Shown one piece after another: positions 2,263 to 29,972 of a DNA stretch of 32,000 nt. The stretch spans positions 1 through 32,000 of the forward strand of contig JAUVKC010000002.1 of NCBI GenBank assembly GCA_030592165.1, in the 5' to 3' direction. The notes under the pieces are model-generated. The model saw nothing but the letters and a program-made list of their open reading frames with translations, was not told where the DNA came from and ran no database searches. The DNA comes from Candidatus Buchananbacteria bacterium (GTDB lineage Bacteria > Patescibacteriota > Patescibacteriia > CAIXNZ01). The position numbers and the translations under genes were made by a program. Within the stretch, counting starts at the first letter, position 1. Each line of letters begins with the position of its first letter.

Positions 2263-3075
2263 ATGCATAACGATTACCAAACATTTAATTCGAAAATTTT
2301 AAAAATAGGGAAGGAGGGTTCTGATTCCAAGACCTATACTTTAAGTTTGCCGTATAAAGGTTTTAAATTCGCACCAGGCCAGTATGTTATGATATCGTTG
2401 CCAGGTTTTGGTGAAGCGCCTATTTCGATTTCTTCTGATGTCAGTGAAACAAAAAATTTTGAATTAACTGTGCGTCGTTCAGGTGTTTTAACTACTGAAC
2501 TGCATAAAAAGAAAAAAAGCGATATTATTGGTATACGCGGGCCGTATGGTAATGCTTTTCCAATGGACTTAGGCAAAGGTAAGGAAATTTTAATAGTAGC
2601 TGGTGGTTGTGGGATTGAACCTGTTAGGCCTTTAATTCTCGATGCAGTACGAAATCCTAAAAAGTATAAAAAAGTTTCTATTTTTTATGGTGCAAGAGAT
2701 GAAGATGCTATGGTTTATGCTAAAGAATATGCGAAATGGAAAAAAGTTTGTGATTTTAATTTGACATTGGATAATCCTAAATCCAAGAAGTTTAGAAAAG
2801 GGGTTGTTACTACCTTGTTTGATGTTAAAAAAATCCCAACTGACTCGATTGCTTATATTTGCGGACCGCCGATTATGTATAAATTTGTGATCGAAAAAAT
2901 GATTAAACAAGGTTTTGATCCGAAAAATATATTTATGTCATTAGAGCGGCATATGGATTGCGGACAAGGAGTATGTCAGCATTGTGCTGTTGGTCCTTAT
3001 TATGTTTGTAAAGATGGACCGGTTTTTTCTTATGAACAGTTAAAAAATTTTAAAACCTGGTTAAAGCCAATTTAA
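2263..3075 (+). CDS. hydG: Group 3b [NiFe]-hydrogenase gamma subunit (FAD/NAD(P)-binding, 2Fe-2S; AsrB/PyrK-like)
   Basis: Ferredoxin-reductase-like fold motifs (ISISS, LIVAGGCGIEP) and a C-terminal CGQGVCQHCAV....C cluster. I prefer the ATG at 2263 over the TTG at 2254. Confidence 0.8.
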   Translation: MHNDYQTFNSKILKIGKEGSDSKTYTLSLPYKGFKFAPGQYVMISLPGFGEAPISISSDVSETKNFELTVRRSGVLTTELHKKKKSDIIGIRGPYGNAFPMDLGKGKEILIVAGGCGIEPVRPLILDAVRNPKKYKKVSIFYGARDEDAMVYAKEYAKWKKVCDFNLTLDNPKSKKFRKGVVTTLFDVKKIPTDSIAYICGPPIMYKFVIEKMIKQGFDPKNIFMSLERHMDCGQGVCQHCAVGPYYVCKDGPVFSYEQLKNFKTWLKPI

Positions 3076-3092
3076 TTATAAAATATAAAAAA

Positions 3093-3117
3093 ACTGGACT
3101 AAGAGATCTAGTTTTTT
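3093..3117 (+). terminator. Possible terminator after hydG
   Basis: ACTGGA-N8-TCTAGT stem (one G-T pair) followed by a T-run, with an A-run upstream. Confidence 0.45.
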
Positions 3118-3229
3118 AATGCTTAGACGTCTTGTCTTGTGGTGACTTTAACAAAAATTATAGGTTATATTGTTAATTTTTTAAAAATATGCGATCATTT
3201 AGTTAAGTTAAATAAACTAATAGTAATAT

Positions 3230-4126
3230 ATGCAAAACTCATTTGGTCACAAAATATGTAAAATTAAAGATCTTTTTCATGATGATAGGGTAGATGTAAG
3301 TATTAGGCAAATTCTTATTAGGGTTTTTCATTATTTAGGTATTTCTAGTGATAAGTCAGATGAAATTATTGATGAGTGTATTAATATTGCCAAAAATTAT
3401 GACACATTAGAATCATATGAACGTTCAGCTCATGAGATTTTAAAAAAAGAAGGTGTGGTTGAAGAGCTACCGAAAAAATTAGATAAAAGAGCTCATATAA
3501 TTTTTAATCAAATAAAGCCTTATCTTTTAGATGGTTCTATTCTTGATTTAGGATGTGGGGATGGTAGAGTCGGTCAGCTGGTTGCTGATTTCGGTCACCA
3601 CGTTGTTTTGGCTGGTATTTGTGAAAATGAAAATATTGAAAATATAAAATTACCTTTTAAGATTTTTAAAAAAAATCAACCATTGCCTTATGGTGATAAT
3701 GAATTTATAAATACTTTAGTTTTAACTGTACTGCATCACAGCGATGACCCTTTGTTTTTATTAAAGGAAATACATCGCGTAACAAAGGATGGTGGTAGAG
3801 TTTTGGTTCGTGAATCAGTCTATGGAGTGACTAAAGATAATTTATCAAAAGTAGAATCTGTTCGTGGCAAATATTATTTGGATCTAACAGCTGAACAGCA
3901 GAAAATGGTAAATATTTTCTTTGATCATTTTTATAGTACTATTATTCTTTATTCAGAAGATCCAGAAAAAAAAATAAAATTGCCATTTAATTTTAATACA
4001 CCAGGAGGCTGGAAGACTTTTTTTGAAGCCAATGGCTTTGATCAAGAAAAAGTTGACTATCTCGGAGTAGATCAGCCAACTGTACCTGAATATCACACTT
4101 TACATGTTTTGAGAGTAATTAAATAA
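3230..4126 (+). CDS. Class I SAM-dependent methyltransferase
   Basis: ILDLGCGDGRVG glycine-rich SAM motif I and downstream VLHH / GGRVLV motifs. The substrate is unknown. Confidence 0.75.
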   Translation: MQNSFGHKICKIKDLFHDDRVDVSIRQILIRVFHYLGISSDKSDEIIDECINIAKNYDTLESYERSAHEILKKEGVVEELPKKLDKRAHIIFNQIKPYLLDGSILDLGCGDGRVGQLVADFGHHVVLAGICENENIENIKLPFKIFKKNQPLPYGDNEFINTLVLTVLHHSDDPLFLLKEIHRVTKDGGRVLVRESVYGVTKDNLSKVESVRGKYYLDLTAEQQKMVNIFFDHFYSTIILYSEDPEKKIKLPFNFNTPGGWKTFFEANGFDQEKVDYLGVDQPTVPEYHTLHVLRVIK

Positions 4127-4178: not shown

Positions 4179-5306
4179 ATGATTATGAATATGGAAGTTT
4201 TTCAAATAAAAAATAATATTAATAAAATTATTTTAGCTATGGGACCAGAATCTGATGGTAATTTTTGTATTCTAAAAAAAAGTCAGTTATATTATTTTAG
4301 TGGTTATGATGATTTGTTAGATGAAGATAATTATGTTAATTACAAGAATGAATTATTAGAATTTATTAAAAATAATAATTTGGTCCCTGATGTTATTTTA
4401 ATTGATTTACATCCATTGTTTAAAACAAGTCTATTGGGTTGTGATTTAGCTAAGAAGTACAATGCAAAATTGATCAAAGTTCAGCATCACCATGCGCATA
4501 TTGGCTCAGCAGTTTTAGATAAGATTATTAGTGATGATAATTATAAAATAAAGAATTTTGGAGCAATTACTAGTGATGGAACAGGTTATGGTTTAGACTG
4601 TAATGTTTGGGGAGGAGAGGTATTTAAGTATGAAGTGGGAAGTATGAAGTATGAGAGAATTGGGAGTTTAGAGGATCAGATTTTGATAGGTAGTGATTTG
4701 GCGATTAAAGAACCAGCCAGAATGATGTTAAGTATTTTATTAAAATTAAATAAATCCAGGGAATTAGTAAACTCCATGGTAGTCGATTATTATTGTGAAA
4801 AAGAATTAAATATCTTGATAAAGCAATATAAACAAAAATTTAATTGCCAGACAACTACTAGTACGGGCAGGGTATTGGATGCAGTCTCTGTTCTCTTAGG
4901 TTTTTGTGATAATAAACGTGATTATAAACATCAGCCGATTGATTTTTTGGAGAAAAATTCTGGTGAGCCATATAAACTTGAACCTAAAATTGAATTTGAT
5001 AAAATTCAAGATAGAGATATTATTTCAACATCGTATTTATTTGAATATTTAATTGATAACCTTGATAAAGATAAACAACGTTTAGCAGCGACTGCCCAAT
5101 TATATTTGGCTCAAGGTTTTTTTCAAGTCATGCAAAAACAAGGTTTGTCTGATATTTATTTTGCTGGAGGTATGGCTAATAATAAAATAATGTCAGAATA
5201 TTTTCAGTCTCTTGGCGTTTATTTAAATAAAAAAATCCCTTGTGGTGATAAGGGGATTAGTTTGGGTCAAATAGGTAGTTATATTTTAACAAATCCTGGG
5301 GATTAA
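4179..5306 (+). CDS. hypF: Hydrogenase maturation carbamoyltransferase HypF, Kae1-like C-terminal domain only
   Basis: VQHHHAHIGS, DGTGYGLDCNVWGGE, TTSTGRVLDAV, AGGMANNK and GDKGISLGQ match the C-terminal half of HypF. It is 375 aa, with no acylphosphatase, Zn-finger or YrdC-like part. Confidence 0.8.
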   Translation: MIMNMEVFQIKNNINKIILAMGPESDGNFCILKKSQLYYFSGYDDLLDEDNYVNYKNELLEFIKNNNLVPDVILIDLHPLFKTSLLGCDLAKKYNAKLIKVQHHHAHIGSAVLDKIISDDNYKIKNFGAITSDGTGYGLDCNVWGGEVFKYEVGSMKYERIGSLEDQILIGSDLAIKEPARMMLSILLKLNKSRELVNSMVVDYYCEKELNILIKQYKQKFNCQTTTSTGRVLDAVSVLLGFCDNKRDYKHQPIDFLEKNSGEPYKLEPKIEFDKIQDRDIISTSYLFEYLIDNLDKDKQRLAATAQLYLAQGFFQVMQKQGLSDIYFAGGMANNKIMSEYFQSLGVYLNKKIPCGDKGISLGQIGSYILTNPGD

Positions 5307-6254
5307 TTTGCCTCTTGGCATTTCTATTTTCCTTAGAGAATTAAATTTTGTTTTTAAAAATACACCTTCACCCATTTCAACCTGACCGATAATCTTTGCT
5401 TCTTTATTATATTCTTTTAATTTATTTAAAACTGATTCAGTGTTTTCTTGACCAACAGAAGCAATAAAGCGTCCTTCTGACGGTAAATTAAAGATATCTA
5501 AACCTAATAGATTAGTTAAAGCTACAACCTCTTTTTTATAAGGGAGTTTTTTTTCGTCTAGAATGATTTTCACTTTAGACTTCTTGGCAATTTCATTAAT
5601 ATTTGCTGCCAGACCTCCTCTGGTTGGATCTTTAGCTGAGGTTAAATAATTTTTAACAGAATTGATTTCATTAATTAATGGCTGGCAATCGCTTTTGATT
5701 TTTGTTTGATAGTCGAATCGGTAGGCTAGTAATGCTAATCCATGTTCTCCTAGATCCCCAGAAGTAATAATATTATCACCTGGTTGGCAACCAGAATTAT
5801 TAATTATATTATCAGCCAAGCCAACTCCTGAAGTAGTGACTTCTATTTTATCTAATTTCCCTTTATCAATTACCTTAGTATCTCCTGTAACAATAGGGAT
5901 TTGTGTTTCTTGAGATATTTGATTTATGGAGTTAGCTATTTTTAATAAATCTTTTTTTGGGAAACCTTCTTCTATGACAATGCTTAAAGATAAACCAATT
6001 GGCTGAGCGCCCATAACAGCCAGATCATTAATTGTGCCACAAACTGCTATTTTACCAATATCACCTCCAGGGAAAAAAATCGGATCAATTATAAAAGCAT
6101 CAGTTGTAAAAACTAATTTTTGATTACCCAAATCATAGACAGCTGAATCGTCTTCAATATTGCTCCAATCTTTTTTTAAATTAATTATTTGGCGAAGTTC
6201 TTTTATTAGTTCATTGTTTTTAAAACCACCGCCACCTTGTTCTAATTCAATCAT
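5286..6254 (-). CDS. hypE: Hydrogenase maturation protein HypE
   Basis: PurM/AIR-synthase-like fold motifs and the diagnostic C-terminal ...PRIC. It converges on hypF with a 21-nt overlap. Confidence 0.95.
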   Translation of the reverse strand: MIELEQGGGGFKNNELIKELRQIINLKKDWSNIEDDSAVYDLGNQKLVFTTDAFIIDPIFFPGGDIGKIAVCGTINDLAVMGAQPIGLSLSIVIEEGFPKKDLLKIANSINQISQETQIPIVTGDTKVIDKGKLDKIEVTTSGVGLADNIINNSGCQPGDNIITSGDLGEHGLALLAYRFDYQTKIKSDCQPLINEINSVKNYLTSAKDPTRGGLAANINEIAKKSKVKIILDEKKLPYKKEVVALTNLLGLDIFNLPSEGRFIASVGQENTESVLNKLKEYNKEAKIIGQVEMGEGVFLKTKFNSLRKIEMPRGKLIPRIC

Positions 6255-6255
6255 A

Positions 6256-7290
6256 TTAAGAATATTTATAATTTATATGACAGGCACCTTCAACTGACAC
6301 CATGCAGGCTCCCTGAGGTGTCTCTGGGGTGCAAGTTTTGCGAAAAAGGGGACAGTCATTGGATTTTTTTATTCCTTGTAATATTTGTCCGCAAATACAA
6401 TTATTTTCCATTGGTTTAAATCCTTTTTTTATATTAGTAATTAAATCTTTATAAATAAATTTTGCATCATTGTCTTTGAATTTTGCTTTGATTTTTAAAC
6501 CTGATAGGGGAATAGAGCCTAGACCTCTCCATCTAGCATCTTTTATTTCAAAAACTTCATTGATTAAATCTAAGGCTTTTTGATTACCTTTTTCACTAAC
6601 AACTCTGATGTATTGGTTGATTACTTTATTATTTTTATTAATAATCATTTCAATCAAAAGTTTTATTGATTCAATAACATCTTCAGGTTCAAAGCCAGTG
6701 ATTACTTGTGGAAATTTGAATCGGTTATAAATCTTTGAACCAATAATGGCAGAGACATGGCCTGGATTAATAAAACCATTAATTTGAATATCTTTATTAC
6801 TAAGTAAGGTCTCCATGGCTGGTGGAAATAATTTATGACTGGAAAAGACAGTCAGTCCTTGTTTTATTGCCCAGGCAGTCATTGGGGTTGTTGTTTCAAA
6901 TCCAATACCAAAGAAGACAAGTTTTGGATATTGTTTTTGAAGTTTTAAAGCATCTTCAGTTGAATAAACTATGAAAATATTTTTCCCATTTTGTTTGGCT
7001 TTTTCAAGAGTTGACTGTCTGCCAGGTAAAGTTAAAGCGTCGCCATAGATGGCTATAGGAATATCATTTAAGGCCAAGCCAATTACAATATCAATATCTT
7101 GTTGATCAGTTACACAAATAGGACAGCCAGGCCCGGAAATTAATTCAATGTTTTTTGGTAATAAACTTTTCAAATTATACTTGGCAATAGTTTGGGAATG
7201 AGTGCCACAGAGTTCCATTAATTTAACATGATCAAGTTGCTGAGCCATGTTTTTGATCTCGTTGATATTTTGTTGTGTTGTTTTATCCAT
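6256..7290 (-). CDS. hypD: Hydrogenase maturation protein HypD
   Basis: CGTHSQTI, GPGCPICVT and GFETTTP motifs plus a C-terminal Cys cluster. The start is set at the internal ATG 7290, which gives an ATGGATAA overlap with the hypC stop. Confidence 0.9.
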   Translation of the reverse strand: MDKTTQQNINEIKNMAQQLDHVKLMELCGTHSQTIAKYNLKSLLPKNIELISGPGCPICVTDQQDIDIVIGLALNDIPIAIYGDALTLPGRQSTLEKAKQNGKNIFIVYSTEDALKLQKQYPKLVFFGIGFETTTPMTAWAIKQGLTVFSSHKLFPPAMETLLSNKDIQINGFINPGHVSAIIGSKIYNRFKFPQVITGFEPEDVIESIKLLIEMIINKNNKVINQYIRVVSEKGNQKALDLINEVFEIKDARWRGLGSIPLSGLKIKAKFKDNDAKFIYKDLITNIKKGFKPMENNCICGQILQGIKKSNDCPLFRKTCTPETPQGACMVSVEGACHINYKYS

Positions 7291-7486
7291 TATTAAAATA
7301 TTTAAGTGTTTTGGCTGCGTCTTTTTTTGATAATTTTTCAATAGCAAATCCAGCATGAACAATAACATAGTCATCAACTTGTCCATCAATAAGAGAGACA
7401 TTGGCTTCTTTTTCTAAACCGTCATAATCAATTATAGCCTTATGTCCTGAGATACTTTTTATTTTTCCTGGAATTGCTAAACACAT
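7283..7486 (-). CDS. hypC: Hydrogenase maturation chaperone HypC
   Basis: 67 aa, beginning with the canonical MCLAIPGK. Confidence 0.9.
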   Translation of the reverse strand: MCLAIPGKIKSISGHKAIIDYDGLEKEANVSLIDGQVDDYVIVHAGFAIEKLSKKDAAKTLKYFNNG

Positions 7487-23997: not shown

Positions 23998-24223
23998 ATA
24001 CGAAGAAAAAAGCATGAAAGAAAATTTTGAAGATGATAGGAATTGCAGAAATTTTTTCTACATCATAGATAATATGGCAGTAATATTGGTTTTTGGAGTA
24101 AGCCAAAAAGGAGGAATATGTGCCAAACCACATGGGAGTGAGTATTGTTATCCACACTCATTAAGAAAAGCTGAACTCTAAACTTCAGCTAAACCAGATA
24201 GGATTACAACTTTGGAGGTTATT

Positions 24224-24475
24224 ATGGTAAATCTTTTTATTCGGACTTTGGCTATTTTAGCGGTGTGTGTGTTTGCATTCTTCCCTATGGGGGGATGCGA
24301 CGATGAAACAATTTCATCAGGAACAGGAAGCGGAAGTAGCTGCCCACCTGGTACCTGTTCTGTAGCGTATGTCTGTTGTCCAACAGATTATCCTTGGTCA
24401 CAAGGTACGAAGTGCTTTGTATCTTCAGCAGATTGTCATGCCTACGGTGCCACCACATGTTACGAGTGCAATTAA
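24224..24475 (+). CDS. Small Cys-rich putative lipoprotein
   Basis: GGAGG 5 nt upstream of ATG 24224. Signal peptide with a lipobox-like PMGG|C. The mature ~59 aa carry 8 further Cys. GC is visibly higher than in neighbouring genes. Confidence 0.6.
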   Translation: MVNLFIRTLAILAVCVFAFFPMGGCDDETISSGTGSGSSCPPGTCSVAYVCCPTDYPWSQGTKCFVSSADCHAYGATTCYECN

Positions 24476-24729: not shown

Positions 24730-25197
24730 ATGAAAATAAAAATAATAACAATTTCAAAAACAAAATCAGCGTATTCTGATCTTGAAAATGAATTTTTAAA
24801 GCGTTTGCAAAAATACGCTAAAATTGAAGTTTTAAATATAAAAGAAGAACCAATTACTAAAAATCGTTCACATGATGATATTAAAGCTATAGAAGGGGAG
24901 AAGTTAGTCTCTAAGATCGATCAGGATGCTTTTATAGTAGTTTTAGACGATAAAGGTAAACAATTCACTAGTCAGGAATTTGCTAAGCAAATAGAGCAAA
25001 TACGCGACTTTAAAGGTGCTAAAATAAATTTTATTATTGGTGGGCCTTTAGGGTTGAGCGGTGAAATCTTGGGAAGGGCTAATTTAGTTATATCATTTTC
25101 TCATATGACTTTTACTCATCAAATGATTAGATTATTGTTACTTGAACAATTGTACCGAGCATTCGAGATCTTAAAAGGTACTGGCTATCATAAATAA
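24730..25197 (+). CDS. rlmH: 23S rRNA (pseudouridine1915-N3)-methyltransferase RlmH (SPOUT)
   Basis: 155 aa, with GGPLGLS and C-terminal THQM.R.LL.EQLYRA....G..YHK motifs. Confidence 0.9.
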   Translation: MKIKIITISKTKSAYSDLENEFLKRLQKYAKIEVLNIKEEPITKNRSHDDIKAIEGEKLVSKIDQDAFIVVLDDKGKQFTSQEFAKQIEQIRDFKGAKINFIIGGPLGLSGEILGRANLVISFSHMTFTHQMIRLLLLEQLYRAFEILKGTGYHK

Positions 25198-25254
25198 TAT
25201 AATGACAAAGTCTTGAGAATTCGTTATAGGTTAGCCTAAATATGGCTAAATAGA

Positions 25255-25283
25255 TTGACAAAAAAGTTTAGATATGCTATAAT
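25255..25283 (+). promoter_or_regulatory. Near-consensus sigma-70 promoter of the riboswitch transcript
   Basis: TTGACA, 17 nt spacer, TGcTATAAT. Confidence 0.7.
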
Positions 25284-25302
25284 ATCTTTATAGTAAAAAC
25301 TC

Positions 25303-25430
25303 AATAGTTATCAAGAGAGCAGTATCCGGAACTGGCCTTATGATACTGTCAGCAACCTATCTAGTAAATTTACACATTTACAGGATAAGGTGCTAATTCC
25401 AGCCCTGCCATTCAGGGGAAGATAATAAGT
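25303..25430 (+). promoter_or_regulatory. SAM-I (S-box) riboswitch aptamer
   Basis: UUAUCAAGAGAG, GGAACUGGCC, UUAUGA, AGCAACC, AAGGUGCUAAUUCC and GAAGAUAA occur in canonical order, with P2a (CAGUA/UACUG), P3 and P4 pairings. Confidence 0.8.
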
Positions 25431-25442
25431 TATATATTACAG

Positions 25443-25476
25443 ATCTTACCCCTTCATGGAGCGTAAGGTTTTTTGT
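25443..25476 (+). terminator. Riboswitch expression-platform terminator
   Basis: ATCTTAC-N13-GTAAGGT followed by TTTTT. The 5' arm ATCTT is complementary to AAGAT of the P1 3' strand, which gives an antiterminator option. Confidence 0.6.
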
Positions 25477-25504
25477 TTATAACTAACTACTTAGTTAAAA
25501 ATTT

Positions 25505-25639
25505 AATAGTCATTATCAAGAGCGCAGATTTTAGTCTGTCTCGGCGATATTGCCAGCAACCTATCGAATATAGTGTAAACACGCTTCATTGGTTAGGCTG
25601 CTAAAATTCAGTAATTCAACGTAAAGAAGATAATAAGTT
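25505..25639 (+). promoter_or_regulatory. Diverged tandem duplicate of the SAM-I element (variant or degenerate aptamer)
   Basis: It shares the P1 strands, AGCAACCUAUC, GCUGCUAAAAUUC and the GAAGAUAAUAAGUUAUAUA tail with copy 1. The P2/k-turn region is replaced and P4 is not evident. Confidence 0.4.
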
Positions 25640-25697
25640 ATATAATTCAGATCTTCAGCCTTTGTTTCACTAATTTAATTTTTAACTATATTAAAAA

Positions 25698-25738
25698 CCT
25701 CTATTGAAATATTATAAAAATCAATAGGTTTTTTTTTT
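25698..25738 (+). terminator. Terminator after the second riboswitch-like unit
   Basis: CCTCTATTGA-N13-TCAATAGG (one bulge) followed by T10. Confidence 0.7.
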
Positions 25739-25764
25739 GACAAAATTTCTAGGAATGTTATAAT
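25737..25764 (+). promoter_or_regulatory. Near-consensus promoter of a ~130-nt transcription unit
   Basis: TTGACA, 16 nt spacer, TGtTATAAT. Confidence 0.7.
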
Positions 25765-25770
25765 TAAATT

Positions 25771-25904
25771 ATATGAATATACGCAAACAAGTTTGGTTTA
25801 CATTTTACTTTTTTACTGACTCTAAGAGGCCAGCTTGTTTGAATATGTTTTAACGTAGTTGTAAATTTTCAAGATAACAAGGCTGACCTCAAGGTCAGTT
25901 TTTT
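25771..25904 (+). ncRNA. Short autonomous transcript: structured sRNA and/or leaderless 26-codon ORF
   Basis: Bounded by the promoter above and a CTGACC-TCAA-GGTCAG-T6 terminator. A long imperfect hairpin spans 25775-25850. An ATG at 25773 opens MNIRKQVWFTFYFFTDSKRPACLNMF. Confidence 0.4.
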
Positions 25905-25978
25905 AGTTAAAAAGGTTAGAGCAAAATTAAAAATGCCATCCTTCGCTCTTGGTTACATAACTATGGTTTATTGGTATC

Positions 25979-26161
25979 ATGGGTTATGGTCAGAGCTACG
26001 GATGGCAAGGAGGAAAAGTAAAACAGATGAATCGTAAACAAAGGAAAAAGCTGAAACAACTAAATGAACGGTTTGGTAATAGGGGTCCTTATTTTGGGCA
26101 AAACAGCAATTGTTCGGTAACTAAGGGAAAAGGGGTTAAAAATGTCAGAAAAACTAAGTAA
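25979..26161 (+). CDS. Hypothetical very basic small protein (60 aa, or 44 aa from ATG 26027)
   Basis: ORF only. AAGGAGG at 26007-26013 lies 13 nt before the internal ATG. Lys/Arg-rich, with no known motif. Confidence 0.3.
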   Translation: MGYGQSYGWQGGKVKQMNRKQRKKLKQLNERFGNRGPYFGQNSNCSVTKGKGVKNVRKTK

Positions 26162-26354
26162 TTGGCTTGTTGGAAAAGGTCTTTTAAATGGGGGAGATAA
26201 GGCTAAACCTGAGATAGTAGGCCTTCTAAGTCGTCTTGATGTGGAGATCACATCAGTCTCAAAATCACAGGGAGGTGACATTTTGCAGATAAGTGCTGAT
26301 GAAGAGACAATGATAGGTTTAAAAGAGCTTTTAAGGGCAAATATGCATGCTTAA
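26142..26354 (+). CDS. Hypothetical 70-aa protein
   Basis: AGGGG 6 nt upstream. Overlaps the previous ORF by 20 nt and is followed by a strong terminator. Confidence 0.45.
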   Translation: MSEKLSNWLVGKGLLNGGDKAKPEIVGLLSRLDVEITSVSKSQGGDILQISADEETMIGLKELLRANMHA

Positions 26355-26361
26355 AAGCCTA

Positions 26362-26388
26362 AGAGAGCACATAAGTGCTCTCTTTTTC
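26362..26388 (+). terminator. Terminator after the small-ORF pair
   Basis: AGAGAGCAC-ATAA-GTGCTCTCT followed by a T-run. Confidence 0.8.
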
Positions 26389-26389
26389 T

Positions 26390-26417
26390 TGACAATATTT
26401 TCGACTATGATATACTG
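26390..26417 (+). promoter_or_regulatory. rplJL promoter
   Basis: TTGACA, 16 nt spacer, TGaTATACT. Confidence 0.7.
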
Positions 26418-26486
26418 TTTATAACTTAATAAAGCCGTAGACAATAGGTATCATTTACGTATAAATCCTATTTAGGAAATTAGCTT

Positions 26487-26515
26487 TCGCACTTCGACTA
26501 TGCTCAGTGTGACAT
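26487..26515 (+). repeat. Hairpin motif copy B (shared with the hydA leader)
   Basis: TCGCAC-TTCGACTATGCTCA-GTGTGA. 24 of 26 nt are identical to 10105-10130. Confidence 0.6.
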
Positions 26516-26525
26516 GCAATTTATA

Positions 26526-26549
26526 TCTGCGGAATCCCGCAGATTTTTT
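26526..26549 (+). terminator. Attenuator hairpin inside the rplJ leader
   Basis: TCTGCGG-AAT-CCCGCAGA followed by T6, 75 nt before the rplJ start. Confidence 0.65.
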
Positions 26550-26624
26550 AATTACTAAGGAATGCTTATTTATTAAAGACATCATTGAGTATTTATCAGT
26601 GTTTTATTATTCATTATATAACCT

Positions 26625-27146
26625 ATGCCAAAAACTAAAGAACAAAAAAAACAAATCATTGATGATTTGGATGAAAAGCTTAAAAATAGTAAAAGTTTAG
26701 TTTTTGCTGATTATAAAGGTTTAACTGTGGTAGAGGCACAAGAACTACGTAAATTGGCGAAACAAAGCGGTGCTGAATATGTTGTGGCTAAAAAGACTTT
26801 AATTCAAAAAGCTTTTGACAAAACAGACATTAAAGATGTTGATGTAACATCAATGGATGGTAATATTGCTCTTATGATCGGCTTTGAAGATGAAGTATCT
26901 GCAGCTAAGGTATCATCTGAATTTGCTAAGGATCATGAGTCATTGAAAATGCTAGGTGGTGTTATGGAAAACAAATATATTGATTTAGCTCAGGTAGAAG
27001 CTTTATCAAAGATCCCTTCAAAAAATGAATTACTTGCCAAACTGGTTGGTAGTATTAATGCTCCTGTTTCAGGATTTGTGAATGTTTTAGCTGGTAATCT
27101 AAGGGGTTTAGTTGGTGTTTTAAACGCTATTAAAGATACTAAATAA
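26625..27146 (+). CDS. rplJ: 50S ribosomal protein L10
   Basis: 173 aa with typical L10 sequence (F.DY.GLTV.E...LR, KNTL). Confidence 0.95.
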   Translation: MPKTKEQKKQIIDDLDEKLKNSKSLVFADYKGLTVVEAQELRKLAKQSGAEYVVAKKTLIQKAFDKTDIKDVDVTSMDGNIALMIGFEDEVSAAKVSSEFAKDHESLKMLGGVMENKYIDLAQVEALSKIPSKNELLAKLVGSINAPVSGFVNVLAGNLRGLVGVLNAIKDTK

Positions 27147-27177
27147 TAATATATATAATAATTAATTTTTAAAAATT

Positions 27178-27630
27178 ATGGCAGAAGAAAAAGATACAAA
27201 AGTAGAAGAAGTTAAAGAAGAAAAAGTTTCTGAAGACAAAAAAGATGTAAAAGTTCCTGCGAAATTCAAATCTTTAGTCGAAGAAATCGAAAAAATGTCC
27301 GTTTTAGATTTAGCTGAATTAGTCTCTATTTTAGAAGATAAATTTGGTGTAAGTGCAGCTGCTCCTGTTGCTGTCGCTGCAGCTGGTGCAGCCGGTGGTG
27401 AAGATGCTGCTGAAGAAAAATCTGAATTTGATGTAGAATTATCTGCAACTGGTGATAACAAAATTGGCGTTATCAAAGCAGTTAAAGCAATTACAGGTTT
27501 AGGTTTGAAAGAAGCCAAAGATTTAGTTGATGCAGCACCAAGCGTAATTAAAAATGCTGTTGCAAAAGCAGATGCTGAAGAAATGAAAAAACAACTTGAA
27601 GAAGCTGGAGCTTCAGTTAATTTGAAATAA
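27178..27630 (+). CDS. rplL: 50S ribosomal protein L7/L12 with an N-terminal charged extension
   Basis: [22 protein letters not shown], an Ala-rich hinge and C-terminal KI.VIKAV...[12 protein letters not shown]. About 27 extra Glu/Lys-rich residues precede the conserved N-terminus. Confidence 0.95.
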
Positions 27631-27695: not shown

Positions 27696-29972
27696 CTATA
27701 AATGCGATAAATTGAAAAAGTAAACTTTATTATCGTTAACTATAAAGACCTTTTTTTCATTTTCTTGCAATGTGAATGTTTTTAAGTTATCAAATAATTG
27801 ACTGTAATATTGAGTAATTAATTCTCCTTTTTTGTCTAGAACAACTATTCTATTATTTGTAGGTTCAAGCACGTATATATAATCAGTATCTTCTCCGGTA
27901 ATCATTTTTGTTGGATTGTTTAGAGCTGGGTCAAGATTTTTGATTTCAAAGCTTTGCTTGGACCCTTTGTTTAGTTTGAATATTTGCCCATCATTATTCA
28001 ATAGCCAAATGTTTGTATCAATGCCAATCGAATTTACACCTTTAAGATCAAGTGAATCTTTCAACCAGGCAATTCCTGCACCATAACCGCCTTGTGCTAC
28101 AGAGTGTCTGTAGATTTGATTTGAATTAACATCAACTACATATAGTCGGTTATTGTAAGTTGCAAAGTCTGAAATTTTACCACCTGCTTGTAGTGAAATG
28201 TTAATTGGCGAGTATTTATCATTACTAAAATTTAGTAAACCATTTTTATCCTGATAAAGCAGAGTTTTATCGGCAATTATTTTGGCCTTTTGAATAGAGC
28301 CAATATCAGAAATGTTTGAGTAAATTTTGTTAACATCACGTGAATCAAGATTTATTTTATAAATATTATTATTAATAGAATCAAAAGCGAAAAGCTGATT
28401 GTTTTTGTAGATTAAATTTTTTATATCAATATTGTTTTCCTGTAAAGTGCTTAAGTTTGTTAAAAGTAGGGAATCATTAATATTGGTAATATGTCGCAAT
28501 TTGCCAATAATAACTTCAATTTTTTGTGAAAGTTCTGATTGTTTTTGTCTTTGATTATTTGAGTCAACTTCCAAAGTGCTTAACAATGCCTGAGCATTAG
28601 TAACTTCTTCTTTGGCTAAGTTTTCATCACCAAAAATGTAGTTTGATTCCGCTTGATTTATTTTATCTTCAATTTGAGTTACTTTATCTTGGAAATCTTG
28701 TGAAAATAATTGTTGGTTTTGTTGATGTTTAAAATAACTTGTACTATATACAAAAAGTATAATTAATAGGACGGCAATAAATAAAAGTATTTTACTTAAG
28801 TTTGGGATTTTTTTTATGTAACTACCAAGATAACCTAATTTTAATTTTAAATATTTTCTTAGATTATATAATTTTTCATTTGTTTTAATGCTGCTGACCA
28901 TTTTTTGAGAAAGTCTTTTTGATTTATTGAATATATTTTTTGAGGTTGTTCCTGCACTTGAAAGTATTTTTTTTGATTTATCAAGTTTTGATTGAGTATA
29001 ATTAGTCTCTGCTTCATCATCCTGCATCGGCGATCGCTGCCGAGACGTGTCTGGGTGTTCAATAGTTTCTGTTTCAATTTCAGATTCAATAGCTTCTATT
29101 TTATTATCTTTTTTAATATAACTAATAGCATGTTGTGAAAATGATTTTAAGTTTGACCAAAAAGATGGAGCAAGTAGTCTTTCAGTTGAGCTTTCTGTAG
29201 AATTGAGCTCAGAAATAGATGTTACAGAAGCAGGGTTTTTGTCCTTAGACTCGTCTTTTAAAGCGTTGTGAATCATTACAGACGCAAAATTGTATCCTTC
29301 ATGTTGTAATAACGAATTTTTGAAATATTCAGCAGCTTTATGGATTGGTAGTGATGTCATTGTTTTTCTTATTCTTTCAGTTGTAATAAAATCAAGAAAG
29401 CTTGAATTGGCTACAAATAAATAATCAGGTGGATTTACTTGTCCTGTTATGAAATTTGAAAATAGTTTTGAGGAAGGTGTAGAATCTTCACCATTTAATT
29501 TCTTTATATTAATAAGTTTGAAATCTTGTTTGCCTTTGTGGATTAAATAAATGCCAATAGTATTTAAATATGACAAATAGATTTCAGTACCTTTAATTAC
29601 GCCAATAGAAAAATTTATTTTTTCTTTGATTGTTTCTTCGTTTAGGTTTCCTACCAGGTAAAACTTTTTCTCTTCAAGTATTTGAGAAAATTTTTGGTTT
29701 GCCTCTTCAAGAGTTTTTTCAAAAGCTTTCTCAGGAGTTATTTCTTCTTCTGATAGACTATAATAAGTATCTTCAATATGATTAATCAGTTGAGTTATGA
29801 TTGCCGCATTTTCTCGACTTGGAGTATTTATTTCAAAGATACCAAAAAGTCTACCCATGTTTTCCTCTTGGGCTTTGCTTGGTTCACTAATAAACAATTT
29901 ACAGGTTGAAGCTGCTTTGTTTGAATAATAGTGAATAAATATATGTGAAATTTTAGTCTCAAAACCAGACAT
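27696..29972 (-). CDS. Large single-pass membrane protein: cytoplasmic N-domain, TM, coiled coil, C-terminal beta-propeller-like repeats
   Basis: 758 aa. TM segment ILLFIAVLLIILFVYSTSYF lies near residue 400. Gln-rich coiled coil. Repeated ..IY.VD..NN.I... segments in the last ~250 aa resemble NHL/propeller blades. Confidence 0.7.
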   Translation of the reverse strand: MSGFETKISHIFIHYYSNKAASTCKLFISEPSKAQEENMGRLFGIFEINTPSRENAAIITQLINHIEDTYYSLSEEEITPEKAFEKTLEEANQKFSQILEEKKFYLVGNLNEETIKEKINFSIGVIKGTEIYLSYLNTIGIYLIHKGKQDFKLINIKKLNGEDSTPSSKLFSNFITGQVNPPDYLFVANSSFLDFITTERIRKTMTSLPIHKAAEYFKNSLLQHEGYNFASVMIHNALKDESKDKNPASVTSISELNSTESSTERLLAPSFWSNLKSFSQHAISYIKKDNKIEAIESEIETETIEHPDTSRQRSPMQDDEAETNYTQSKLDKSKKILSSAGTTSKNIFNKSKRLSQKMVSSIKTNEKLYNLRKYLKLKLGYLGSYIKKIPNLSKILLFIAVLLIILFVYSTSYFKHQQNQQLFSQDFQDKVTQIEDKINQAESNYIFGDENLAKEEVTNAQALLSTLEVDSNNQRQKQSELSQKIEVIIGKLRHITNINDSLLLTNLSTLQENNIDIKNLIYKNNQLFAFDSINNNIYKINLDSRDVNKIYSNISDIGSIQKAKIIADKTLLYQDKNGLLNFSNDKYSPINISLQAGGKISDFATYNNRLYVVDVNSNQIYRHSVAQGGYGAGIAWLKDSLDLKGVNSIGIDTNIWLLNNDGQIFKLNKGSKQSFEIKNLDPALNNPTKMITGEDTDYIYVLEPTNNRIVVLDKKGELITQYYSQLFDNLKTFTLQENEKKVFIVNDNKVYFFNLSHL

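Follow-up and report, generated by a model that had tools for sequence, protein, structure and literature searches.

Genomic context of the riboswitch region

The question raised by this locus is why an apparently intact SAM-I riboswitch, complete with promoter and terminator, should stand in a bacterial genome with no gene behind it. The sequence under study, referred to here as the window, is the forward strand of a 32-kb stretch from a Patescibacteria (Buchananbacteria-like) genome, of which these ∼32 kb are the visible part. An earlier note on this DNA had described an orphan tandem element, a canonical aptamer (copy 1) followed by a rewritten duplicate (copy 2), and had offered three readings of it: an orphan or trans-acting RNA, a tandem pair in which copy 2 had changed or lost its ligand, and a relic of a lost regulated gene. 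The evidence set out below favors the last of these. The element is probably the 5′ portion, now orphaned, of a tandem SAM-I leader that formerly controlled metK, and it is classed here as a relic of this known type of leader; a new class of RNA is rejected.

Pfam searches placed genes for an O-methyltransferase and RlmH (24730–25197) upstream of the element and genes for the ribosomal proteins L10 and L12 (26625–27630) downstream. The nearest RlmH and L10 sequences are from Patescibacteria, which the depositors call Parcubacteria or Buchananbacteria, and an exact-match look-up with the RlmH of the window gave no match. No met or SAM gene was found by Pfam downstream of copies 1 and 2, and tblastn with the MetK of a related locus (L115, see below) as query found no metK anywhere in the 32-kb window, which bears out the earlier note on this point. 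No ORF lies between copy 1 and the next terminator and promoter. The order reported 3′ of copy 2 was also recovered in full: a terminator, a fresh promoter, a short terminated transcript, two small ORFs, and the L10 leader, with the downstream genes on the same strand as the riboswitch region. The features of this downstream part are as follows.

25693–25738, forward strand: intrinsic terminator, an AU-rich hairpin followed by U10 (−7.4 kcal/mol, 13-nt loop), homologous to the terminator 3′ of metK in L115.
25737–25764, forward strand: promoter 2, matching 12 of 12 consensus positions, which begins the next, independent transcription unit.
25771–25903, forward strand: terminated leader RNA belonging to the module of small ORFs that follows, conserved in eight lineages, for which a consensus fold was obtained; it lies outside the riboswitch.

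The terminator of this leader RNA has a folding energy of −12.1 kcal/mol (z = −4.6), and the family of the 70-aa ORF of the window was recovered by blastp among the loci collected from relatives.

Copy 1 is a SAM-I riboswitch by sequence and structure criteria

The unit containing copy 1 comprises the following features, in which c1-type denotes the class shared with the first units of related loci (see below).

25255–25283, forward strand: promoter 1, TTGACA, 17 nt, TG-TATAAT (extended −10), matching 12 of 12 consensus positions, with a predicted start at ∼25290.
25305–25428, forward strand: SAM-I aptamer of copy 1, c1-type, matching RF00162 at 55.9 bits.
25415–25452, forward strand: antiterminator of copy 1, in which the P4/P1 3′ strand GGGGAAGAU (25415–25423) pairs with AUCUUACCCC (25443–25452); −11.6 kcal/mol.
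25442–25475, forward strand: intrinsic terminator T1 of copy 1, with a hairpin at 25442–25470, the stem AUCUUAC/GUAAGGU, and a U-run; −9.6 kcal/mol.

The near-consensus promoter noticed earlier thus matches the consensus at every scored position and has the upstream TG in addition; an identical promoter sequence stands in front of copy 1 of loci L099, L102, and L116. The cmscan search that had been proposed (Rfam 15) aligned copy 1 with the full RF00162 model (positions 1–108), with an E-value of 1.6e-10 for the whole window and a score well clear of the gathering threshold of 44.4 bits, and the SAM-I core features fall where the note had placed them. Across eight c1-type units, 96.8% of the cells in P1 to P4 and the pseudoknot are paired, with compensatory changes at eight pairs; none of 500 shuffles matched this pairing and compensation, and slid controls were 29–46% paired. 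The pseudoknot between the P2 loop and J3/4 reads CUGG/CCAG in the window and covaries to CUGA/UCAG in L001 and L118.

The switch itself is similarly preserved. The 9-bp stem of T1 is retained in eight lineages with one-sided G-U/A-U changes, and the antiterminator sequence is conserved in all c1-type units. Both structures, which compete for the same AUCUUAC strand, are conserved in eight lineages, in agreement with the OFF-switch logic suggested before. No decay is visible in copy 1, its promoter, or its terminator. By sequence and structure criteria, copy 1 is therefore a bona fide SAM-I riboswitch and is predicted to bind SAM, and its expression platform is modelled as a classical S-box OFF switch. 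SAM-I (S-box, RF00162) riboswitches are known upstream of metK and of met and cys genes in Bacillota, and copy 1 shares with them the four-helix junction, pseudoknot, core, and OFF switch; it differs from the Bacillota examples in having no gene behind it, in its Patescibacteria host, and in a platform linker that is unusually conserved within the clade. With respect to genomic context, a position upstream of a met, cys, or SAM gene is found for the units of L115, L118, and L119 and not for copy 1 in the window.

Tandem SAM-I riboswitches and metK in related genomes

Loci occupying the slot between rlmH and rplJ were gathered with the RlmH protein, a DNA pattern for the copy-1 platform, and homologues of L10 and MetK, and represent a small sample of lineages. 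Those with tandem units are syntenic with the window, having rlmH upstream and the L10 leader, rplJ, and rplL downstream. Their scores against the SAM-I model are as follows.

L001: units 1 and 2, 55.1 and 72.2 bits.
L086: units 1 and 2, 56.7 and 65.9 bits.
L099/L102/L116: units 1 and 2, 48.8 and 59.2 bits.
L094: units 1 and 2, 52.7 and 44.4 bits.
L115: units 1 and 2, 55.6 and 54.5 bits.
L118: units 1 and 2, 54.2 and 55.4 bits.
L112: a single c1-type unit, 71.6 bits.

Altogether, 14 SAM-I units were found in relatives, with scores of 43.2–72.2 bits. Each tandem unit in L001, L086, L094, L099/L102/L116, L115, and L118 has its own terminator-like hairpin and U-run, as read directly from the sequence. 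The first units form the tight c1-type class, being 78–97% identical to one another and sharing the leader and platform GAAGATAATAAGTWATATATTT(T)AGATCTTACCCC...GTAAGRTTTTTT, whereas the second units form a looser class (#2-type) with GGGAAAGATAA followed by a variable platform.

In L115 and L118, metK lies directly 3′ of the tandem pair. It also follows the pair in L119, where the contig end cuts the first unit so that only its c1 3′ half is seen, followed by a #2-type unit just under threshold (43.2 bits), metK, and the L10 leader. The MetK of L115 contains the Pfam S-AdoMet_synt N, M, and C domains and matches TIGR01034 at 441 bits. The order in L115 is rlmH, a promoter with the c1-type unit and its terminator, a truncated c1 remnant, the #2-type unit with its terminator, and metK; 3′ of metK come a terminator abutting the promoter TTGACAAAATTTCTAGAAATGCTATAAT, the conserved leader RNA, a small basic peptide, a 77-aa protein, and the L10 leader. 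The SAM-I units of these relatives would thus control metK, as in known systems. Riboswitches in L116, L086, L094, and L112 precede unrelated ORFs; searches of Pfam and NCBIfam found no credible domain in the riboswitch-controlled cargo ORFs of relatives, except for a weak histidine-phosphatase match in L112. The closest relatives of the window by protein identity, L108 and L109, do not have the riboswitch island, and a sub-threshold Rfam scan of the island-less loci L108, L109, L110, and L114 found no SAM-I remnants. The copy-1 platform pattern matched 26 loci in metagenomes, 4 of which are riboswitch loci, the others being chance matches in AT-rich sequence, mostly from gut metagenomes; it had no matches in viral contigs.

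Double SAM-I riboswitches have been described before: Sherlock et al. (2022, RNA Biol, PMC9481103) reported 164 doublets and one triplet, for which pseudo-cooperative behavior was predicted. The relatives resemble these in having two complete SAM-I riboswitches per leader, each with a terminator. L115 and, it would appear, the ancestor of the window possessed a c1-derived third unit as well. Of the two units in the window, the second lacks both a functional aptamer and a terminator, and no ORF follows, so that the definition of a tandem riboswitch applies to L001, L086, L116, L115, and L118 and not to the window. There, the first riboswitch survives next to a dead duplicate, the genuine second riboswitch has disappeared together with the ORF, and no tandem switch remains.

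Copy 2 derives from the first unit and is degenerate

Downstream of T1, the window contains one further element.

∼25492–25690, forward strand: copy 2, a duplicate of the whole copy-1 unit, with a leader, an aptamer-like part (25510–25636), and a platform remnant.

Aligned with copy 1, copy 2 is 56% identical, and the matches are bunched in TTATCAAGAG, CAGCAACCTATC, GAAGATAATAAGTTATATA, and CAGATCTT, the same patches from which it had been called a rewritten duplicate. Runs of 19, 12, 10, and 8 matching bases occur, the longest of which is reached by shuffles with P = 5e-4. The leader of copy 2, TAGTTAAAAATTTAATAGTCATTATCAAGAG, and its 3′ platform are c1-type and not #2-type, and copy 2 is therefore best seen as an extra duplicate of the first unit instead of the ancestral second riboswitch. 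Of the earlier reading as a tandem pair with a changed or lost copy 2, the loss of the SAM-I fold holds good, whereas the identity of copy 2 as the second member does not, the true second riboswitch having probably been deleted (see below).

In a 1.5-kb search, the aptamer-like part scored 17.3 bits against the SAM-I model (E = 1.4), below the gathering threshold. Its minimum-energy fold has P1, a long P3-like hairpin, and two new short hairpins in place of P2, with P4 absent, as the earlier note had drawn it, and none of 200 shuffles was as stable (z = −4.1). Retained are P1, J1/2, the AGCAACC strand, and the P3-like hairpin, the distal stem of which is rewritten yet paired. P4, the K-turn, the pseudoknot (possible over 3 bp only), and a terminator of its own are missing, and the pocket strand reads GGCUGCU versus GGUGCU in copy 1, with an extra C. 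Counting SAM-I pairs on the MAFFT alignment did not discriminate between units, copy 2 having 24 of 32 pairs and genuine #2 aptamers 18–26 of 32 through misalignment, and copy 2 was therefore judged on covariance-model scores. SAM-IV and SAM-I/IV riboswitches (clan CL00012) resemble copy 2 in joining a SAM-I-like P1/P3 core to other peripheral helices. Copy 2, however, has no replacement pseudoknot or extra helix and is conserved in no other genome, and in the scan of these models that had been suggested, the best match within the clan was SAM-I itself, at the same 17.3 bits; assignment to SAM-IV or SAM-I/IV was thus rejected.

The counterpart of copy 2 in L115 is a 5′-truncated c1-derived remnant (L115 ∼2476–2625) that, like copy 2, has lost P4 and the terminator. 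It has no P1 5′ strand, P2, or J2/3 and therefore cannot be an aptamer. A TTGTTT motif seemingly common to copy 2 and this remnant can be aligned in two ways, and the two elements may stem from one duplication or from two. No second locus with two matches to the platform pattern appeared in the metagenome scan, and copy 2 has been seen in this strain only. In the homologous loci, the collection of which had been proposed earlier as a check, the c1-type units are conserved and covarying, and the copy 2 variant is conserved in no other genome.

The retained P1, J1/2, AGCAACC strand, and P3-like hairpin, the stability of the fold, and the patchy, non-uniform conservation relative to copy 1 would also be expected if copy 2 had become an aptamer for another ligand, making the pair a two-input tandem switch. 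This is very unlikely, however, given the low score, the absence of P4, pseudoknot, and K-turn, and the additional C in the pocket strand. In addition, copy 2 has no expression platform of its own and no downstream gene to control, it is confined to one strain, and its sole counterpart is the truncated remnant in L115. The patchy identity and the z-score fit two histories, the decay of a third aptamer that had once worked and short-tract gene conversion from copy 1; the non-uniform decay could likewise reflect residual constraint or gene conversion. Neither history, decayed aptamer or gene conversion, would be a sign of present function.

The second riboswitch and metK are missing from the window

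Pairwise alignment and blastn showed that the window and L115 are colinear through copy 1 and the c1-derived remnant as far as the linker TTTTAACTATA, just before aptamer #2, and that the alignment picks up again at the terminator of metK and at promoter 2. The intervening L115 sequence, 2625–3981 (1357 nt), which holds aptamer #2, its terminator T2, and metK, has no counterpart in the window. The layout of the window is therefore that of L115 minus the second riboswitch and metK, with the following breakpoint.

25690–25691: junction of the deletion as seen against L115, flanked on the left by the linker found before aptamer #2 in relatives and on the right by the homologue of the metK terminator.

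No long repeat is found at the junction. The window hairpin at 25693–25733 aligns with the metK terminator of L115, and promoter 2 is also present 3′ of metK in L115, with 90% identity over 40 nt. These data strongly support the earlier suggestion that the element is left over from a regulated gene now lost, since relatives have tandem SAM-I units and metK in the same slot and the window has kept the homologue of the metK terminator. The direction of the change, a loss in the window as opposed to a gain in relatives, is suggested by distribution in an unrooted comparison, and the lack of the island in L108 and L109, the two nearest relatives, counts against it; metK may also have moved elsewhere in the genome, beyond the visible ∼32 kb. 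The slot appears to have lost metK more than once. L001 and L118 are closely related, with 89% identity between the 207/216-aa proteins encoded downstream and 86% between the riboswitch pairs. L001 has no metK and has kept both riboswitches, which directly precede the next gene; it would thus be a second, independent loss.

Survival of the metK terminator also bears on whether copy 1 might regulate the genes beyond it. At low SAM, transcripts from promoter 1 could pass 25693–25738 and contribute to expression of the small ORFs and their leader and perhaps also of rplJ–rplL. This terminator is weak by energy and loop size, copy 2 contributes none of its own, and the downstream genes have the same orientation. 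Against this, the hairpin is followed by a run of 10 U residues, and the unit beyond it is equipped with a 12/12 promoter and a terminated leader of its own. The same terminator–promoter joint divides metK from the downstream unit in L115, and the riboswitch-less L108 and L109 have the same module, which is autonomous there. Regulation by read-through is accordingly considered improbable.

Copy 1 was probably exchanged between lineages

Comparison with L115 revealed an incongruence between copy 1 and its surroundings. The two copy-1 aptamers are 98% identical (122 of 124 positions), and identity is 94.7% from the promoter through the terminator, whereas DNA identity to L115 is 67% in rlmH, 64% in the L10 leader, and 74% in the L10 gene. 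The RlmH protein of the window is 83% identical to that of L109, 77% to that of L108, and 61% to that of L115. At the protein level, L115 groups with L112 (85%), and the c1-type units of these two are only 80% identical. Promoter 2 is 90% identical to that of L115 and 54.5% to that of L109, and the leader body just 3′ of it is 85% identical to L109 and 75% to L115. The identity of 98% in copy 1 versus 61% in RlmH argues for a recent exchange of this segment, and we infer from these sequence comparisons a recent exchange between lineages that involved at a minimum copy 1, if not the whole island. Natural transformation and homologous recombination have been described in Patescibacteria (PMC11665869). 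If the exchange was recent, an intact copy 1 needs no selection in this genome.

A mosaic of this kind could in principle be produced during assembly. The data are from metagenome-assembled genomes, and two co-occurring genomes might have been chimerically joined through a near-identical copy 1, which would account for both the 98% identity to a distant lineage and the mosaic flanks. An independent Logan assembly (L107, 2307 nt), however, corresponds to window positions 24885–27191 with a single mismatch at 25267 and thus spans rlmH through rplJ. Moreover, the deletion junction has no long repeat, and copies 1 and 2 share at most 19 consecutive identical bases. A chimeric assembly is consequently most unlikely.

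Predicted behavior of the remaining element

The history that best accounts for the locus begins with an ancestral slot that would have held a promoter, a first SAM-I riboswitch with its terminator, a linker of ∼45 nt, a second SAM-I riboswitch with its terminator, and metK, an arrangement expected to act as a pseudo-cooperative double OFF switch. In the lineage of the window, the copy-1 unit would have been duplicated once to give copy 2, which would subsequently have lost P4, the pseudoknot, the K-turn, and its terminator. Loss of the block made up of aptamer #2, its terminator, and metK would have fused the linker to the metK terminator. Promoter 1 presumably still fires. With SAM bound, P1 would form and transcription would stop at T1, at ∼25475, giving an RNA of ∼185 nt; with SAM absent, the antiterminator would form and the polymerase would continue across the inert copy 2 and reach what was once the metK terminator (25693–25738), giving an RNA of ∼450 nt. 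Neither predicted RNA holds an ORF, which would leave a switch without a cis target. Copy 1 would be intact since it is young in this genome, and not necessarily since it is used.

As a counterpoint, an intact copy 1, promoter, and terminator would be expected as well if a stand-alone function were still under selection. Copy 1, alone or together with copy 2, might be a stand-alone SAM-responsive non-coding RNA, the terminated ∼185-nt product of which acts in trans or as a SAM-dependent decoy. The perfect promoter and the intact aptamer and terminator are in keeping with this proposal, as is the unusual conservation of the c1-type unit (78–97% across lineages), including its single-stranded linker AAUAAGUWAUAUAUUU, and a precedent exists in SreA, the terminated transcripts of which pair with the prfA 5′ UTR (PMC8079631). 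A search of the 32-kb window for the complement of the linker, however, returned the element only (three matches versus 1.1 expected, two of them being self-matches), and every relative has its c1-type RNA in an ordinary cis position before ORFs. Since copy 1 is 98% identical to that of L115, out of step with the flanking genes, recent exchange would explain its intactness with no need for selection. A stand-alone RNA of this kind is therefore regarded as rather unlikely, and the earlier suggestion of an orphan or trans-acting RNA like SreA/SreB found no support here. Slightly less likely again is a free-standing SAM sensor, consisting of copy 1 and possibly a structured copy 2, that was kept after the loss of metK and yields two trans-acting or decoy non-coding RNAs (∼185 and ∼450 nt). 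Were it so, this would be the first riboswitch without any cis target, and its host a Patescibacteria symbiont dependent on imported SAM or methionine. Stand-alone function of copy 1 by whichever route, as a trans-acting RNA or through read-through, is considered unlikely overall, although with a real minority chance.

In Listeria, the SAM-I riboswitches SreA and SreB yield terminated transcripts with activity in trans (Loh et al. 2009, reviewed in PMC8079631). The likeness of copy 1 to these lies in the short terminated SAM-I transcript predicted from a strong promoter. SreA, however, has cis targets and a demonstrated trans target, whereas copy 1 has no cis target and no complementary site was found in the visible sequence of the window.

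Under the preferred reading as the remainder of a tandem metK leader, the single locus is an ordinary relic. It illustrates that an above-threshold score does not guarantee that a riboswitch regulates anything, and annotation pipelines and searches for orphan riboswitches should therefore check synteny first. The comparison with relatives is of wider interest, as it documents tandem SAM-I riboswitches that would control metK in Patescibacteria, together with a regulatory RNA that appears to have passed between lineages in a mosaic fashion. The slot seems to have lost metK repeatedly, which would fit a host-dependent lifestyle. The unrelated genes of unassigned function that follow riboswitch pairs kept in relatives are candidates for new SAM-related functions.

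Possible exchange of the copy-1 segment and independent loss of metK

The window's SAM-I aptamer (copy 1) and its counterpart in L115, a related locus in which metK follows the riboswitches, are 98% identical (within window 25292-25480 and L115 2287-2473), and the whole stretch from promoter to terminator (window 25255-25478) is 94.7% identical. The RlmH proteins of these two lineages share only 61% identity, and in the closer relatives of each lineage copy 1 is either more divergent or absent. Near identity of the RNA despite such distant RlmH proteins, and its divergence or absence in closer relatives, suggests that the regulatory RNA segment carrying copy 1 was laterally exchanged between lineages.

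Two further relatives, L001 and L118, are colinear with a DNA identity of 86-89%. Where L118 has metK (4943-6073), L001 has 184 unrelated bases (7244-7427), with both riboswitches kept; L001 is a case of independent metK loss.

Genes following the riboswitches in relatives

In five related loci, ORFs stand in place of metK 3' of SAM-I riboswitches, which are tandem in four and single in L112:

L116 4556-5140, ORF region after the riboswitches
L086 2764-4171, ORF region after the riboswitches
L094 1227-1593, ORF region after the riboswitches
L112 4254-5146, ORF region after the single riboswitch
L001 7446-8069, ORF region after the riboswitches

These ORFs, which include zinc-ribbon peptides, a duplicated 207-aa protein and a weak histidine-phosphatase match, are unrelated, and no known domain was found in them. 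They represent genes of unknown function and candidates for a response to SAM. The second aptamer of L094 (1000-1137), which carries an extra hairpin, GGCCATAAACC...GGTTTAGGCC, within P2, scored 44.4 bits, exactly the Rfam threshold.

A conserved leader RNA and small ORFs upstream of rplJ

Between copy 1 and rplJ, the window contains the following features:

25737-25764, promoter of the conserved leader or small RNA
about 25771-25903, terminated leader or small RNA, common to eight lineages
26027-26161, small basic peptide (MNRKQRKKLKQLNERFG...), kept in at least eight lineages
26142-26354, protein family of 70-91 aa, kept in at least eight lineages
26417-26559, L10 leader

The leader RNA contains a stem, AAACAAGUUUGGU/GGCCAGCUUGUUU, around the near-invariant loop UUACAUUUUACUUUUUUACUGAC. 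The 3' strand of this stem is complementary to AGCUGGCC, the 5' arm of the leader's terminator, which suggests that the RNA switches between a terminator and an antiterminator. The leader matched no Rfam family and may be a new cis-regulatory RNA. Both small ORFs are conserved directly 5' of the L10 leader, and neither matched Pfam or NCBIfam. The window's L10 leader scored 40.8 bits, slightly below the Rfam threshold of 44, versus 48-67 bits in relatives.

Other observations

24212-24475, 87-aa ORF
27696-29972, minus strand, 758-aa protein, 3' of rplL

The 758-aa protein has no credible Pfam domain; counterparts of 742-776 aa follow rplL in nearly all related loci that reach far enough. The 87-aa ORF, which has no family match, has a hydrophobic N-terminal segment and a cysteine-rich C-terminal half, and its product may be a secreted peptide. 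An independent assembly, a Logan contig matching the window over 2307 nt, differs from it only by a T/C substitution at position 25267, between the two boxes of promoter 1.
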